DNA from: Escherichia coli
GTDB lineage: Bacteria > Pseudomonadota > Gammaproteobacteria > Enterobacterales > Enterobacteriaceae
DNA: 64,000 bases
Assembly: GCF_024298765.1 (NCBI RefSeq)
Contig: NZ_CP101210.1
Strand: one strand, 5' to 3'
The notes under the pieces were generated by a model. That model did not search any database. It was not told where the DNA came from and saw nothing but the letters and a program-made list of their open reading frames with translations. Numbering within the stretch: the stretch's first letter is position 1; every line of letters begins with the position of its first letter. Positions 490 through 26,915 of this stretch are shown piece by piece. The translations under genes and the position numbers were made by a program.

Positions 490-1755
490 TTACTGTTTTA
501 ATGGATTATTAATCTTTGCATATTCAAATGGACTGATAAATTTTTCTCTGTTTGCATCCAGAAAATCGGCCCACCATTGTAGCATCAAGCGGCGTTCTTC
601 CAGATGCTCTGCTTTATGGATATACGCGGCCCTCACTGAATTTCGCTCCATGTGGCTCATCTGACGTTCAACAGCATCACGAGACCACAAACCTGATTCG
701 ACCAATGAACTACAGGCCATTGTTCGAAAGCCATGACCACAAACCTCTACTTTTGTATCATACCCCATGACCCGTAACGCACTATTTACCGTATTCTCAC
801 TCATGGGTTTGTGCGAATCGTGATCACCAATAAATATCAAGTCATGGGCCCCACAAAACTGTTTTATCTGCTTTAAAATTGCAAGAGCTTGCGTTGAAAG
901 AGGCACTAGATGCGTTGTACGCATTTTTGAGCCTCTATGGGAATGTTTCACTCCAGGAATAGGCTCCCGCTCCGGTGGGATAGTCCATATAGACGCTTCG
1001 AAATCGATCTCTGACCAACGAGCAAAACGCAGCTCACTGGACCGAATAAAGATCAGCAAAGAGAGTTCTGTCGCCCATCGGGTTAGCGGCCTACCAGTAT
1101 AGCTATCTATTTTTGTAAGCAACTCAGGGATGCGCTTTAATTCAAGCGCGGGACGATGTTGTCGATTACAGGAAGCAACCGCCCCAGCCATCTCTTGTGC
1201 CGGGTTATAATCAATTAACCCACTTTGCACTGCATAGCGCATGATGGCTGTAGTGCGCTGCTGAAGACGAGCGGCCACTTCAAGACGTCCAGACATTTCT
1301 ACGGCCTTAATGGGTGCTAATAAATCTCGAGTTTTTAACTCAGCGATATTACGTTCACCAAGCGCTGCAAAAAGATTATCTTCCAGACTTTTTAGCACAC
1401 GATGGGCGTGATCTTCAGACCACTTTTTATTGGTGCCATGCCACTCAATCGCGACTTCTTTAAAGGTTCGTGCTTTACTCTGTTCAACCTTATCATTTTT
1501 CTTTTTGTCTCCCGGATCGACGCCATTCGCAAGCAGCTTACGCGCCTCGTCACGACGTACTCTGGCATCCGCTAGTGTGATTTCAGGATAAACCCCAAGT
1601 GCCAGCATTTTTTGCTTTCCCTCATAACGGTACTGCAAACGCCAGTACTTAGAACCATTTGGATGGACAAGCAGATGCATACCGCCACCATCAGTCAGCT
1701 TATATTGCTTATCCGTTGGCTTGGCTGCTCTGACTTTGATATCTGTTAATGCCAT
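490..1755 (-). CDS. P4-family tyrosine integrase (site-specific recombinase) adjacent to tRNA-Leu
   Basis: 421-aa ORF with ATG start; N-terminal MALTDIKVRAAKPT...WRLQYRYEGK and C-terminal integrase-like region are typical of P4-type integrases; lies directly downstream of the leuX 3' end on the same strand. Confidence 0.88.
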   Translation of the reverse strand: MALTDIKVRAAKPTDKQYKLTDGGGMHLLVHPNGSKYWRLQYRYEGKQKMLALGVYPEITLADARVRRDEARKLLANGVDPGDKKKNDKVEQSKARTFKEVAIEWHGTNKKWSEDHAHRVLKSLEDNLFAALGERNIAELKTRDLLAPIKAVEMSGRLEVAARLQQRTTAIMRYAVQSGLIDYNPAQEMAGAVASCNRQHRPALELKRIPELLTKIDSYTGRPLTRWATELSLLIFIRSSELRFARWSEIDFEASIWTIPPEREPIPGVKHSHRGSKMRTTHLVPLSTQALAILKQIKQFCGAHDLIFIGDHDSHKPMSENTVNSALRVMGYDTKVEVCGHGFRTMACSSLVESGLWSRDAVERQMSHMERNSVRAAYIHKAEHLEERRLMLQWWADFLDANREKFISPFEYAKINNPLKQ

Positions 1756-1941: not shown

Positions 1942-2026
1942 TGGTGCCGAAGGCCGGACTCGAACCGGCACGTATTTCTACGGTTGATTTTGAATCAACT
2001 GCGTCTACCGATTTCGCCACTTCGGC
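1942..2026 (-). tRNA. leuX: tRNA-Leu (anticodon CAA)
   Basis: Reverse complement reads GCCGAAGTGGCGAAATCGGTAGACGCAGTTGATTCAAAATCAACCGTAGAAATACGTGCCGGTTCGAGTCCGGCCTTCGGCACCA; cloverleaf with CAA anticodon and 3' CCA. Confidence 0.95.
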
Positions 2027-2221: not shown

Positions 2222-3241
2222 ATGTCGATGATAAAAAGCTATGCCGCAAAAGAAGCGGGCGGCGAACTGGAAGTTTATGAGTACGATCCCGGTGAGCTGA
2301 AGCCACAAGATGTTGAAGTGCAGGTGGATTACTGCGGGATTTGTCATTCCGATCTGTCGATGATCGATAACGAATGGGGATTTTCACAATATCCACTGGT
2401 TGCCGGGCATGAGGTGATTGGTCGCGTGGTGGCGCTCGGGAGTGCCGCACAGGATAAAGGTTTGCAGGTCGGTCAGCGTGTCGGGATTGGCTGGACGGCA
2501 CGCAGCTGCGGGCATTGCGATGCCTGTATTAGCGGTAATCAGATCAACTGCGAGCAAGGTGCGGTGCCGACGATTATGAATCGCGGTGGCTTTGCCGAGA
2601 AGTTGCGTGCGGACTGGCAATGGGTGATTCCACTGCCAGAAAATATCGACATTGAATCTGCCGGACCGCTGTTGTGCGGCGGTATCACGGTCTTTAAACC
2701 GCTGTTGATGCACCATATCACTGCCACCAGCCGCGTTGGGGTAATTGGTATTGGCGGGCTGGGGCATATCGCTATAAAACTTCTGCACGCAATGGGATGC
2801 GAGGTGACAGCCTTTAGTTCTAATCCAGCGAAAGAGCAAGAAGTGCTGGCGATGGGTGCCGATAAAGTGGTGAATAGCCGCGATCCACAGGCACTGAAAG
2901 CACTGGCGGGGCAGTTTGATCTCATTATCAACACCGTCAACGTCAGCCTCGACTGGCAGCCTTATTTTGAGGCGCTGACGTATGGCGGTAATTTCCATAC
3001 GGTCGGTGCAGTTCTCACGCCCTTGCCGGTTCCGGCCTTTACGCTGATTGCGGGCGACCGCAGCGTCTCTGGCTCTGCTACTGGCACGCCTTATGAGTTG
3101 CGTAAGCTGATGCGCTTTGCCGCCCGCAGCAAGGTTGCGCCGACCACCGAACTGTTCCCGATGTCGAAAATTAACGACGCCATCCAGCATGTGCGGGATG
3201 GTAAGGCGCGTTATCGCGTGGTTCTGAAAGCCGACTTCTGA
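2222..3241 (+). CDS. ahr: Zn-dependent NADPH aldehyde reductase / alcohol dehydrogenase
   Basis: [26 protein letters not shown]...[10 protein letters not shown] zinc-ADH motif; 339 aa from the internal Met of ORF 2180..3241; synteny next to leuX. Confidence 0.92.
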
Positions 3242-3370
3242 TCCCTTTGCCGGGTGCCTGTCGCCCGGCACTTAAATCTCTTTGGAAGGCGTCTCGCAAT
3301 CTGCTGAATTTAGCGGTGAAGAGTGCGCAGCCGTTGCCTATACTCCAGGCAGGAAACTGGAGGAAATCTC

Positions 3371-4873
3371 ATGAGCGAACCCCTGTTAATTGCCCGCACG
3401 CCGGACACAGAACTTTTTTTACTGCCGGGAATGGCTAACCGTCACGGGCTGATTACTGGCGCAACGGGGACGGGTAAAACCGTTACGCTGCAAAAACTGG
3501 CAGAGTCTCTATCTGAAATCGGCGTGCCGGTGTTTATGGCCGATGTGAAAGGTGATTTAACGGGAGTAGCGGAGGAAGGTACTTCTTCGGAAAAACTGCT
3601 CGCAAGGCTTAAAAATATCGGCGTAAATGACTGGCAACCTCATGCTAATCCGGTGGTGGTGTGGGATATCTTTGGCGAGAAAGGCCATCCGGTGCGGGCG
3701 ACGGTTTCGGATCTTGGGCCGCTGTTGCTGGCACGACTGTTGAATCTCAACGATGTGCAATCTGGCGTGCTGAATATCATTTTCCGCATTGCTGACGATC
3801 AGGGATTGTTGCTGCTCGACTTTAAAGATTTGCGGGCGATTACCCAGTACATCGGCGATAACGCCAAATCCTTCCAGAATCAGTACGGAAATATCAGTAG
3901 CGCATCGGTTGGTGCCATCCAGCGCGGATTACTGTCGCTGGAACAGCAAGGCGCAGCACACTTCTTTGGTGAGCCGATGCTGGATATCAAAGACTGGATG
4001 CGCACCGATGCCAACGGTAAAGGCGTTATCAATATCCTCAGCGCCGAGAAACTTTATCAGATGCCGAAACTGTACGCCGCCAGCCTGCTGTGGATGCTTT
4101 CAGAGTTATATGAACAATTGCCTGAAGCGGGCGATCTGGAGAAACCAAAACTGGTGTTTTTCTTCGACGAAGCACATCTGCTGTTTAACGATGCACCGCA
4201 GGTACTGCTGGATAAGATTGAGCAGGTGATAAGGCTTATCCGCTCGAAAGGCGTGGGCGTCTGGTTCGTTTCGCAAAACCCGTCAGATATTCCGGATAAC
4301 GTGCTCGGGCAGCTCGGTAATCGCGTTCAACACGCTTTGCGGGCTTTTACGCCCAAAGATCAGAAAGCAGTAAAAGCTGCGGCGCAAACCATGCGGGCCA
4401 ATCCGGCGTTTGATACCGAAAAGGCAATCCAGGAACTGGGGATCGGCGAGGCGTTAATCTCGTTTCTCGATGCGAAAGGAAGCCCTTCAGTGGTGGAACG
4501 GGCGATGGTGATTGCCCCCTGTTCACGAATGGGGCCGGTGACGGAAGATGAGCGTAATGGCTTGATTAATCACTCCCCGGTGTATGGCAAGTACGAGGAT
4601 GACGTGGATCGGGAATCCGCCTATGAGATGTTGCAAAAAGGCTTTCAGGCCAGTACCGAGCAGCAAAATAATCCTCCCGCGAAAGGGAAAGAGGTGGCGG
4701 TGGATGACGGTATTCTTGGTGGATTGAAGGATATTTTGTTTGGCACTACCGGACCACGCGGCGGGAAGAAAGATGGTGTGGTGCAAACAATGGCGAAAAG
4801 CGCCGCCCGCCAGGTGACGAATCAGATTGTGCGTGGGATGTTGGGGAGTTTGCTGGGGGGGAGAAAAAGGTAA
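3371..4873 (+). CDS. yjgR: HerA-like P-loop ATPase, DUF853 family
   Basis: [37 protein letters not shown]alker A motif; 500 aa from the internal Met of ORF 3323..4873. Confidence 0.88.
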
Positions 4874-5033: not shown

Positions 5034-6116
5034 TTACGATTTTCTCATTAACAGCCACAGGCTGATTAAGAAGAAGCTGGCGCTTGGCAGCAACGCGCCG
5101 ATAATCGGCGGGATGCCGTAAACCAATGTCAGCGGGCCGAAGATCTGGTCCAGTACGTAGAAGACAAAACCGAAGCTGATACCGGTGACCACACGCACGC
5201 CCATCGGTACGCTACGCAGTGGGCCAAAGATAAACGACAGCGCCATCAGCATCATCACCGCCACGGATAGAGGCTGGAAGATTTTGCTCCACATGTTGAG
5301 TTGATAACGTCCGGCATCCTGACCGCTCGACTTTAGATACTTCACATAGTTGTGCAAACCACTGATGGAGAGTGCATCCGGGTCCAGCGCCACCACGCCC
5401 AGTTTGTCTGGCGTGAGGTTGGTTTTCCAGGTGCCGCTCACCGTCTGCGAACCGGTGATCTGTTTCGGATTGGTCAGATCAGATTCATCAACCTGCGACA
5501 GACGCCAGACTTTATGTTCCGGGTCAAACTTCGCGGTAGCGGCATAGCGTACGGATTGCAGACGACGATTCTCGTTAAAGGCATAAATACTGATGCCACC
5601 TAACTCTTCGTCACCTTTAACCCGCTCAATGTAGACGAAGTTGTTGCCATCTTTCGCCCATAAGCCTTGCTGAGTGGAGAGTAACGAGCCGCCGTACATC
5701 GCCTGGGCACGGTAGTTACGCGCCATCTGCTCGCCCTGCGGCGCGACCCATTCACCAATCGCCATCGTCAGTAAGACCAGCGGAATGGCGGTTTTCATCA
5801 CCGACAGCGCCACCTGCATACGGGTAAAACCAGAAGCCTGCATCACCACCAGTTCGCTGCGCTGCGCCAGCATCCCAAGACCAAGCAACGCCCCAAGCAG
5901 AGCCGCCATCGGGAAGAAGATCTGCACATCTTTCGGCACGCTCAGCAAGGTATACATTCCTGCGCCTAACGCGTCGTAACTCCCCTGCCCGGCTTTTTTC
6001 AGCTGATCGACAAATTTGATAATGCCCGACAGCGACACCAGCATGAACAGCGTCATCATGATGGTGGTAAAAATAGTTTTACCGATATAGCGGTCAAGTA
6101 CGCCAAAAGGTTGCAT
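5034..6116 (-). CDS. lptG: LPS export ABC permease LptG
   Basis: MQPFGVLDRYIGKTIFTTIMMTLFMLVSL...; 360 aa; overlaps the lptF stop. Confidence 0.93.
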   Translation of the reverse strand: MQPFGVLDRYIGKTIFTTIMMTLFMLVSLSGIIKFVDQLKKAGQGSYDALGAGMYTLLSVPKDVQIFFPMAALLGALLGLGMLAQRSELVVMQASGFTRMQVALSVMKTAIPLVLLTMAIGEWVAPQGEQMARNYRAQAMYGGSLLSTQQGLWAKDGNNFVYIERVKGDEELGGISIYAFNENRRLQSVRYAATAKFDPEHKVWRLSQVDESDLTNPKQITGSQTVSGTWKTNLTPDKLGVVALDPDALSISGLHNYVKYLKSSGQDAGRYQLNMWSKIFQPLSVAVMMLMALSFIFGPLRSVPMGVRVVTGISFGFVFYVLDQIFGPLTLVYGIPPIIGALLPSASFFLISLWLLMRKS

Positions 6117-7216
6117 CACACCGCTCCTTTACGCGAAAAACTGGCACGCAGGCGGCGGACCGGCACGGTGTCCCAAAGGTTGAGAACAATCGCCAAAGCC
6201 AGATAAATCAGGTTAACGGTCCACATCCACAGTGTCGGGTCCAGCTTACCTTTACCGCCGTTCGATTTCAGGGAGGTCTGGATCAGGAAGAAAAGTAGAT
6301 ACAGCAGCATGGCTGGCAGCATCGACAGTACGCGTCCCTGACGTGGGTTAACCACGCTCAGCGGTACGACCATAAGTGCCATCATAAACACGGTGAATAC
6401 CAACGTGATACGCCAGTTCAGTTCTGCGCGAGCACGATCGGTGTCAGTGTTCCACAATGTGCGCATGTCCATCTGGTCGGTATCGTTCGGGTCGAGCGCC
6501 ACCGCCTGGTGACCAATGATCGCCTGATAATCCTGGAAGTCCGTAATGCGGAAATCGCGTAACAGTGCAGTGCCTTCGAAGCGCGTTCCCTGGTTGAGAG
6601 TGACGACCTGGGAGCCGTCGCGCAGCTGGGTTAAATGTCCGGAATCGGCCACCACCACAGAAGGACGTGCATTACCTTTTGGTCGAATTTGTGCGAGGAA
6701 CACATCTTTGAAATCGCTGCCGTCAACGCTTTCGATGAACAGCACCGAGCTGCCATTAGTCGCTTGCTGGAATTGCCCTTGCGCCAGCGCCGCCATGCCA
6801 GGGTTCGCTTTCGCTTCTGCTAACACTTCATCCTGATGACGCGATGACCACGGTCCCGCCCACATCACGTTAACCGCCGCGACGATTGCCGTGAATACCG
6901 CAAGGATCATTGCCGCTTTCACCAGAACCGCTTTGCTCAGGCCGCAGGCATGCATTACCGTAATTTCACTTTCGGTATACAGTTTGCCCAGCGTCATCAG
7001 CAGCCCGAGGAACAGGCTTAATGGCAGGATAAGCTGCGCCATTTCCGGCACGCCCAACCCGAGAAGGGAGAGCACCAGATTCGCCGGAATATCGCCGTCA
7101 ACCGCTGCGCCGAGGATCCTCACTAACTTTTGACAGAAGAAGATCAAAAGCAAGATGAAGAGTATCGCCAGCTGGCTTTTGAGCGTCTCCCGCACCAGAT
7201 ATCTTATGATTATCAC
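6116..7216 (-). CDS. lptF: LPS export ABC permease LptF
   Basis: MIIIRYLVRETLKSQLAILFILLLIFF...; 366 aa with GTG start; divergent from pepA. Confidence 0.93.
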   Translation of the reverse strand: MIIIRYLVRETLKSQLAILFILLLIFFCQKLVRILGAAVDGDIPANLVLSLLGLGVPEMAQLILPLSLFLGLLMTLGKLYTESEITVMHACGLSKAVLVKAAMILAVFTAIVAAVNVMWAGPWSSRHQDEVLAEAKANPGMAALAQGQFQQATNGSSVLFIESVDGSDFKDVFLAQIRPKGNARPSVVVADSGHLTQLRDGSQVVTLNQGTRFEGTALLRDFRITDFQDYQAIIGHQAVALDPNDTDQMDMRTLWNTDTDRARAELNWRITLVFTVFMMALMVVPLSVVNPRQGRVLSMLPAMLLYLLFFLIQTSLKSNGGKGKLDPTLWMWTVNLIYLALAIVLNLWDTVPVRRLRASFSRKGAV

Positions 7217-7479: not shown

Positions 7480-8994
<1,515 letters not shown>

Positions 8995-9127
8995 GTTTGC
9001 GTTTTACCCTCACCCTAACCCTCTCCCTAAGGGAGAGGGAACCGATCGAGCGCAATAGAAATTCATTGCTCATCTTTCAGGGTGAGGAATGCAGCAATAT
9101 TTAAATCCACCACAAGAAGCCCCATAT

Positions 9128-25967: not shown

Positions 25968-26915
25968 ATGCAAAATCGGCTGACCATCAAAGACATCGCG
26001 CGCTTAAGCGGCGTGGGGAAATCTACGGTTTCCCGGGTGCTGAATAACGAAAGCGGCGTGAGCCAGCGCACGCGCGAGCGTGTTGAAGCAGTGATGAATC
26101 AGCATGGATTTTCCCCTTCCCGCTCTGCGCGCGCTATGCGTGGTCAAAGCGATAAAGTGGTCGCCATCATTGTTACCCGTCTGGATTCGTTGTCAGAAAA
26201 TCTCGCCGTTCAAACCATGCTGCCAGCGTTCTATGAACAAGGTTACGACCCAATCATGATGGAAAGTCAGTTTTCCCCGCAATTAGTTGCCGAACATTTG
26301 GGGGTGCTGAAACGGCGTAATATCGACGGCGTAGTGCTGTTCGGTTTTACCGGCATAACAGAAGAAATGTTAGCCCACTGGCAGTCATCGCTGGTTCTGC
26401 TGGCGCGTGACGCAAAAGGCTTTGCTTCGGTCTGTTATGACGACGAAGGGGCAATCAAGATCCTGATGCAACGGCTGTATGACCAGGGGCATCGTAATAT
26501 CAGTTATCTCGGCGTGCCGCATAGTGACGTGACGACCGGGAAGCGACGTCACGAAGCCTACCTGGCGTTCTGCAAAGCGCATAAACTGCATCCCGTTGCC
26601 GCTCTGCCAGGCCTTGCTATGAAGCAAGGCTATGAGAACGTAGCAAAAGTGATTACGCCTGAAACTACCGCCTTACTGTGCGCAACCGACACGCTGGCAC
26701 TTGGCGCAAGTAAATACCTGCAAGAGCAACGCATCGACACCTTGCAACTGGCGAGCGTCGGTAATACGCCATTAATGAAATTCCTCCATCCGGAGATCGT
26801 CACCGTAGATCCTGGTTACGCCGAAGCTGGACGCCAGGCGGCCTGCCAATTGATCGCACAGGTAACCGGGCGCAGCGAACCGCAACAAATCATCATCCCC
26901 GCCACCCTGTCCTGA
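25968..26915 (+). CDS. treR: Trehalose operon repressor (LacI family)
   Basis: 315 aa; N-terminal HTH LTIKDIARLSGVGKSTVSRVLNN. Confidence 0.93.
   Translation: MQNRLTIKDIARLSGVGKSTVSRVLNNESGVSQRTRERVEAVMNQHGFSPSRSARAMRGQSDKVVAIIVTRLDSLSENLAVQTMLPAFYEQGYDPIMMESQFSPQLVAEHLGVLKRRNIDGVVLFGFTGITEEMLAHWQSSLVLLARDAKGFASVCYDDEGAIKILMQRLYDQGHRNISYLGVPHSDVTTGKRRHEAYLAFCKAHKLHPVAALPGLAMKQGYENVAKVITPETTALLCATDTLALGASKYLQEQRIDTLQLASVGNTPLMKFLHPEIVTVDPGYAEAGRQAACQLIAQVTGRSEPQQIIIPATLS

Follow-up and report, generated by a model that had tools for sequence, protein, structure and literature searches.

The stretch of DNA analysed here, which we call the window, is 64,000 nucleotides of an Escherichia coli genome (RefSeq assembly GCF_024298765.1, contig NZ_CP101210.1). 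The junction under study lies near its left end, between ahr and yjgR, and close to a tRNA gene:

490-1755, minus strand: a P4-type tyrosine integrase that adjoins leuX.
1942-2026, minus strand: leuX, tRNA-Leu(CAA), called with ARAGORN; a neighbouring hotspot of island integration and recombination.
2222-3241, plus strand: ahr (yjgB), the NADPH-dependent aldehyde reductase gene that forms the left flank, with its TGA stop at 3239-3241.
3371-4873, plus strand: yjgR, encoding a HerA-like P-loop ATPase of unknown role, which forms the right flank and has its ATG at 3371.

Both flanking genes are intact and adjacent, in the order and orientation of K-12, and leuX, lptGF and pepA are syntenic as well. 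The Ahr protein shares 99.4% identity with K-12 Ahr and is a zinc alcohol dehydrogenase by its Pfam domains (ADH_N and ADH_zinc_N); YjgR is 99% identical to its K-12 counterpart and matches HerA_C (E = 1e-253). In E. coli 2014C-3338 (NZ_CP027452.1), which is 100% identical over the region, the two genes carry the annotations ahr and yjgR. The gap between them runs from 3242 to 3370, i.e. it is exactly 129 bp. This is the spacing given by the original prediction, and our coordinates for the ahr stop (3241) and the yjgR start (3371) confirm it. The terminator-like hairpin and the TATACT element that had also been noted in the gap are both there, at 3248-3270 and 3339-3344, respectively.

Three further observations concern the neighbourhood. 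The integrase beside leuX marks an island integrated at leuX. In 2014C-3338, a BREX system (brxC, DUF1788, DUF1819; locus L002, 1-2990) lies just past the point that corresponds to the left edge of the window. In two of the six sampled genomes with an empty junction, S21 (L085, 2972-4471) and SMN197SH3 (L087, 2972-4475), yjgR is annotated as a truncated or frameshifted pseudogene, which could be real decay or sequencing error.

The K-12 locus reads leuX, ahr, idnK (on the minus strand), idnD, idnO, idnT, idnR, yjgR, lptG, lptF and pepA, and its gap between ahr and yjgR measures 5,126 bp. The original prediction had placed idnK and idnDOTR at this position in K-12, and the K-12 sequence agrees; the alignment that it proposed shows that K-12 does not have the same 129-bp junction. 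By blastn, homology between the window and K-12 stops exactly at 3241, the end of the ahr stop codon, and resumes at 3332, 40 bp before the yjgR ATG. What distinguishes the two states is a replacement (90 bp in one, 5,087 bp in the other) and not a clean insertion or deletion. The features of the junction are as follows:

3223-3241, plus strand: the last ~20 nt of ahr, which hold the sole flank positions fixed between the two states (3223, 3224, 3235 and 3238).
3242-3331, plus strand: 90 bp specific to the unoccupied allele, in place of which K-12 has the 5,087-bp idnK-idnDOTR block.
3245-3253, plus strand: CTTTGCCGG, which alone within the 90 bp has an equivalent in K-12, where it lies beside the right breakpoint.
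3248-3270, plus strand: a GC-rich hairpin with a 9-bp stem and a 5-nt loop (folding energy -16.7 to -17.3 kcal/mol).
3282-3298, plus strand: a sigma-54-like GG-N10-GC match, TTGGAAGGCGTCTCGCA, to a pattern chosen post hoc; a lead only.
3283-3370, plus strand: the conserved yjgR 5' region, comprising an upstream element, TATACT (3339-3344) and a Shine-Dalgarno sequence, GGAGGA (3359-3364).

No idn remnants were found in the junction when it was compared with the K-12 locus by short-word blastn. Apart from the shared 40-bp yjgR leader, the comparison returned only chance-sized 9-14-mers. One of these, CTTTGCCGG, sits outside the idn genes in K-12: the 9-nt exact match is at 8991-8999 of the K-12 locus (L001), two nucleotides before homology restarts at 9001, and when the empty allele of SMN197SH3 is used instead, the match grows to 12 nt, TCTCTTTGCCGG. 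We read it as what may remain, behind idnR, of the ancestral spacer; at 9-12 nt it is short, and the same blast run gave a dozen chance 9-mer matches elsewhere in 18 kb. On the other side of the junction, differences linked to the idn state are already seen in the last ~20 nt of ahr. At positions 3223, 3224, 3235 and 3238, the seven empty and seven idn+ E. coli genomes that we compared have no base in common, and the C/T difference at 3235 also separates empty from idn Citrobacter genomes. No position of yjgR is fixed between the states in the same seven empty and seven idn+ genomes.

None of idnK, idnD, idnO, idnT and idnR lies between the flanks, so the strain is empty at this site as predicted. 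Searching the whole 64-kb window by tblastn with the K-12 Idn proteins gave no idn homologues; the hits were weak paralogues. One, at 19168-19860, is a short-chain dehydrogenase with 27% identity to IdnO, and the other, at 25971-26864, is a LacI-family regulator with 21% identity to IdnR; these were considered as a relocated idn cluster and rejected, being unrelated loci. For the rest of the genome, we used a probe that consisted of window positions 2942-4873 together with 300 nt of idnD. Among the 60 listed genomes that are 99.9-100% identical to the window haplotype, each with one matching place, none of the 60 gave an idnD match elsewhere; these genomes of the same haplotype therefore have no idnD anywhere on the chromosome.

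To place the strain among its relatives, we drew on a survey of 5,426 complete E. coli genomes. The contiguous ahr-yjgR junction is present in 3,212 of them (59%), and idn DNA in 2,055 (38%), never on plasmids. With ahr joined contiguously to idnK in 2,051 of the 2,055 carriers, idn sits essentially only at the ahr-yjgR site. The remaining category comprises about 160 genomes (~3%) in which the 3' end of ahr is missing. Among named lineages, O157:H7, O145:H28 and O111:H11 are empty, whilst K-12, O104:H4 and ST1193 are idn+. The description of the junction as a strain-variable accessory slot is supported; K-12 represents the minority state at the site and the 'empty' allele is the majority. As a separate case, E. 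coli STS63-1-E (L083, 7746-8079) has a 236-bp remnant of ahr, and keeps the junction only from the position equivalent to ~3292 of the window onwards.

Variable idn presence across E. coli is a common strain difference that has already been reported. In one such report (PMC5369007), idnK is absent from the ST131 strains JJ1886 and S250 and present in SE15, HS and Nissle. Another (PMC8545132) gives idnD, O, R, K and T in 83% of pks-positive against about 31% of pks-negative genomes, and a third (PMC4216125) describes L-idonate catabolism genes as enriched in HUS-associated STEC.

A collapsed or misjoined region in the assembly, or an artefact in how the window was drawn, might mimic the absence of idn. 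We consider this extremely improbable. The complete genomes that share this contiguous junction number 3,212, all of them independent, and 50 are 100% identical across 1,932 bp; E. albertii and Citrobacter werkmanii have the junction as well. No evidence for an artefact was found in the window, though at least one public genome, E. coli MLI104K2, has noisy and probably artefactual sequence at the site. In that genome, 928 bp between ahr and yjgR (L084, 7958-8887) form a chimera of K-12-type and empty-type sequence, in which there are idnT/idnR-like fragments at 88% identity. We examined MLI104K2 as a possible intermediate with a decayed idn cluster and rejected it, given its long homopolymer runs and the look of an assembly artefact. 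Mixed reads or polishing probably account for the junction sequence of this RefSeq 'complete' genome.

The outgroups available to us were one E. albertii and two Citrobacter genomes; the loci listed did not include Salmonella, E. fergusonii, Shigella or Klebsiella. The junction aligns end to end with E. albertii and with C. werkmanii, in both of which ahr lies directly beside yjgR. Over the whole 129 bp there are seven differences from E. albertii. In the comparison with C. werkmanii, the 88 bp proximal to yjgR show 12 differences and the hairpin part of the spacer has diverged in sequence. The 90-bp segment at 3242-3331, the part that K-12 does not have, is alignable in six other empty E. coli genomes as well as in E. 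albertii and C. werkmanii. Judged by these alignments, the junction is an intact spacer with no deletion scar. Nor would it have been made by deletion of idn, since 90 bp that are missing from the idn allele could not arise by deletion from it.

The two Citrobacter genomes disagree on the state of the site: C. werkmanii is empty and Citrobacter sp. FP75 is idn+. In FP75, the idn gene order and the right breakpoint are the same as in idn+ E. coli, among which the idn boundaries are identical in 7/7 sampled genomes. The Idn proteins of FP75 are 80-96% identical to those of K-12, and the flanking proteins Ahr, YjgR and LptG are 91, 94 and 94% identical, respectively. Because two genera hold both states, and because the FP75 Idn proteins are about as diverged as the flanks, both states appear to be old. 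Based on these three outgroup genomes, few as they are, the comparison suggests that the spacer without idn most likely came first, with idn as an old insertion allele. Salmonella LT2 presumably also carries idn at the same locus; if so, both states would be very old and parsimony would be uninformative.

A third state of occupancy is seen further out. In Enterobacter cloacae (L006, 8217-9863, minus strand), Enterobacter sp. Ag1 and Leclercia adecarboxylata (L007 and L008), the gap between ahr and yjgR holds a Dak1/Dak2 dihydroxyacetone-kinase gene on the opposite strand. This fits the idea of a slot, in that the interval varies at the genus level.

We then considered what the spacer itself may encode, beginning with the hairpin behind ahr. 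It starts 7 nt after the ahr TGA; gccgggtgcctgtcgcccggc occupies 3249-3269, and t3248 with a3270 completes the 9-bp stem. A terminator scan of 3100-3500 returned the hairpin as its sole terminator-like site, with 0.3 expected in shuffled sequences. The folding z-score of the hairpin is modest at -1.3 to -1.8 (-1.3 to -1.96 across the empty alleles), and the U-tract, CUUAAAUCUCUUU, is weak and interrupted. The tail, CTTAAATCTCTTT, passes the lax rule of the scan, with 5 T in 8, though interrupted. C. werkmanii has a 9-bp hairpin of different sequence in the same place after the ahr stop. Hairpins of differing sequences are found 9-12 nt past that stop in C. werkmanii and, inside the 3' end of idnK, in K-12 and Citrobacter FP75. 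Since every allele and species has a hairpin behind the ahr stop, though not of one sequence, the one at 3248-3270 is a probable, predicted terminator of ahr transcription.

The rest of the spacer, from 3283 to 3370, is the more conserved part. These 88 bp show 0-2 differences within E. coli and 2/88 against E. albertii. By comparison, the figures for third codon positions in the two flanking genes are 9-17% within E. coli and 26-28% against E. albertii, so that the conservation of this noncoding stretch is ~10 times stronger. By that measure, noncoding 3283-3370 is under strong apparent constraint. The GGAGGA Shine-Dalgarno sequence lies six nucleotides before the yjgR ATG, and the last 40 bp before yjgR are kept in all the states and genera examined. 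K-12 and all the idn+ genomes are without the upstream half of the element (3283-3331), and have yjgR placed directly behind idnR.

TATACT matches TATAAT at 5 of 6 positions. It does not vary between the two idn states or among Escherichia, Citrobacter, E. cloacae and Leclercia; in Enterobacter sp. Ag1 the hexamer reads TATGCT. A promoter scan of 3100-3500 found no sigma-70 promoter, there being no acceptable -35 partner for TATACT; read from the sequence, the best -35 candidates 16-18 nt upstream are GTGAAG and TGAAGA, with 3 of 6 matches or fewer. The pattern YTGGNANNNNNNTYGCW, picked after seeing the sequence, has a single match in the 64-kb window, the sigma-54-like TTGGAAGGCGTCTCGCA, where 1.48 would be expected. 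The flanking blocks of this match are kept in C. werkmanii and the spacer between them is changed. A search of 3000-3700 against Rfam gave no RNA family with E <= 1. We also observed an inverted repeat, CTCCAG-N8-CTGGAG (3343-3362, plus strand), which runs from the end of TATACT to the fourth base of the Shine-Dalgarno sequence. Its conservation in Citrobacter and Enterobacter is partial. Where transcripts begin further upstream, the repeat could hide their ribosome-binding site. The RpoH and RpoE SELEX peaks recorded for K-12 yjgR are intragenic (Shimada et al. 2017, PMC5493296), and do not concern the junction.

There is a low probability that the two alleles differ in more than sugar catabolism and also rewire the expression of yjgR, and that idn presence and absence, with breakpoints shared by the two genera, form a long-lived polymorphism across Escherichia and Citrobacter. 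If expression were rewired in this way, knowledge of yjgR regulation based on K-12 would miss an element of the majority, and probably ancestral, allele. For studies of yjgR regulation an idn-negative strain should be used, because the upstream half of the conserved 5' region is absent from K-12.

Between E. coli strains, ahr and yjgR show 3-7% nucleotide differences, with proteins that are ~99% identical, against 0.4-3% for lptG (5034-6119). The polymorphism of these two genes is 2-3 times that of lptG. The ahr and yjgR trees conflict with each other and with the idn state, and the window groups with idn+ strains. The idea of two deep flank haplotypes tied to the idn state was rejected on this account, the trees being mosaic. 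E. coli has two major hotspots of phylogenetic incongruence, and the leuX region is one of them (Touchon et al. 2009, PMC2617782); mosaic flanks are to be expected at a site within that recombination hotspot. No integrase, transposase or IS was found between ahr and yjgR in K-12, and no terminal direct or inverted repeats bound idn in the K-12 locus (L001, positions 3914 and 9000). Since no mobile-element machinery is present, we infer from 14 sampled genomes (7 empty, 7 idn+) that lineages have probably swapped the alleles through homologous recombination in ahr and yjgR.

The setting would also suit a mobile-element hotspot, in which idn is a mobile island and this strain has lost it by precise excision. 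At a distance of 1.3 kb lies leuX, classically a place where islands attach, which has an integrase beside it, and the gap holds other cargo in other genera, namely the Dak kinase of Enterobacter and Leclercia. Yet the K-12 interval from ahr to yjgR has none of the mobility genes or terminal repeats of such an island, and on these grounds we rejected idn as a mobile island. In addition, precise excision cannot explain the replacement of 5,087 bp by 90 bp, and idn is never found on plasmids or at a second site, with 2,051 of 2,055 occurrences at the ahr-yjgR junction. The probability that we attach to this mobile-island reading is only a few chances in a hundred.

Another possible history is that the empty state of this strain is derived. 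Here an idn-carrying ancestor would have lost the cluster, with the spacer restored by an imported empty allele, or with the loss itself being that replacement. The ahr of the window is 3.5-3.6% from those of the idn+ strains A36 and KOr021, compared with 4.6-6.4% from those of other empty genomes. The yjgR of the window is likewise 3.4-3.7% from the idn+ strains FY26 and A36, compared with 4.9-5.5% from other empty genomes. This closeness to idn+ strains implies that the idn state has changed on this flank background at some time, and the occurrence of both states within ST131 (PMC5369007) would make changes of state frequent. Even so, the distances to the idn+ strains are still 3-4%, so that a recent event is not demonstrable, and the junction has no idn remnant. 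We regard a derived state as possible though doubtful. It would concern this lineage only, and the spacer could still be the species' ancestral allele.

Taking the evidence together, we favour, at a probability of roughly 80%, a reading in which the junction is an intact core-gene spacer with a putative ahr terminator and the yjgR 5' region, from which idn is absent; the spacer would be ancestral, idn an old insertion, and the two alleles recombining. The order of events would be as follows. An uninterrupted spacer between the core genes ahr and yjgR would have been the ancestral arrangement. A single old insertion of idn would have taken place directly after the ahr stop, combined with a loss of ~78 bp of the spacer that took away the greater part of the hairpin and the yjgR element's upstream half. 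Of the 90 bp, the idn allele would have kept only the first 9-12 nt, fused to the yjgR leader. Both alleles now segregate in E. coli, and would have been swapped by recombination between homologous ahr and yjgR sequences.

One consequence is for annotation: the 'empty' junction should not be annotated as a deletion, since it appears to be an intact and selectively constrained spacer. A second is metabolic. The K-12 idn genes are established as the GntII subsidiary gluconate system and serve L-idonate catabolism via 5-ketogluconate, as reported by Bausch et al. (1998, J Bacteriol 180:3704). By analogy with this K-12 function, the absence of idn predicts that the strain would show no growth on L-idonate and would have no subsidiary GntII gluconate route, and the main GntI route should be unaffected.

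These results can be set against known systems. The hairpin resembles Rho-independent terminators in having a GC-rich stem-loop after a stop codon, with a T-rich stretch behind it and a position conserved across alleles. This putative terminator differs in that its U-tract is interrupted (CUUAAAUCUCUUU). The site shares with the leuX-fim hotspot (PMC2617782) its location, 1.3 kb from leuX, and its polymorphic flanks and conflicting trees; however, the idn block is not at the tRNA and has no integrase; it is a separate two-state site inside the hotspot. Published pangenome reports likewise treat idn as accessory, and our count is 38% idn+ among 5,426 genomes. As far as their available portions go, those reports (PMC5369007, PMC8545132, PMC4216125) give gene presence and absence, with no description of the junction and its breakpoints, of the 90-bp alternative sequence or of the state in outgroups. 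The closest comparison is with the GntII/idn locus of K-12. Here the site is the same, as are the flanks (leuX and ahr on one side; yjgR, lptGF and pepA on the other), their order and their orientation, whereas the window is without all five idn genes and has in their place 90 bp that are absent from K-12.
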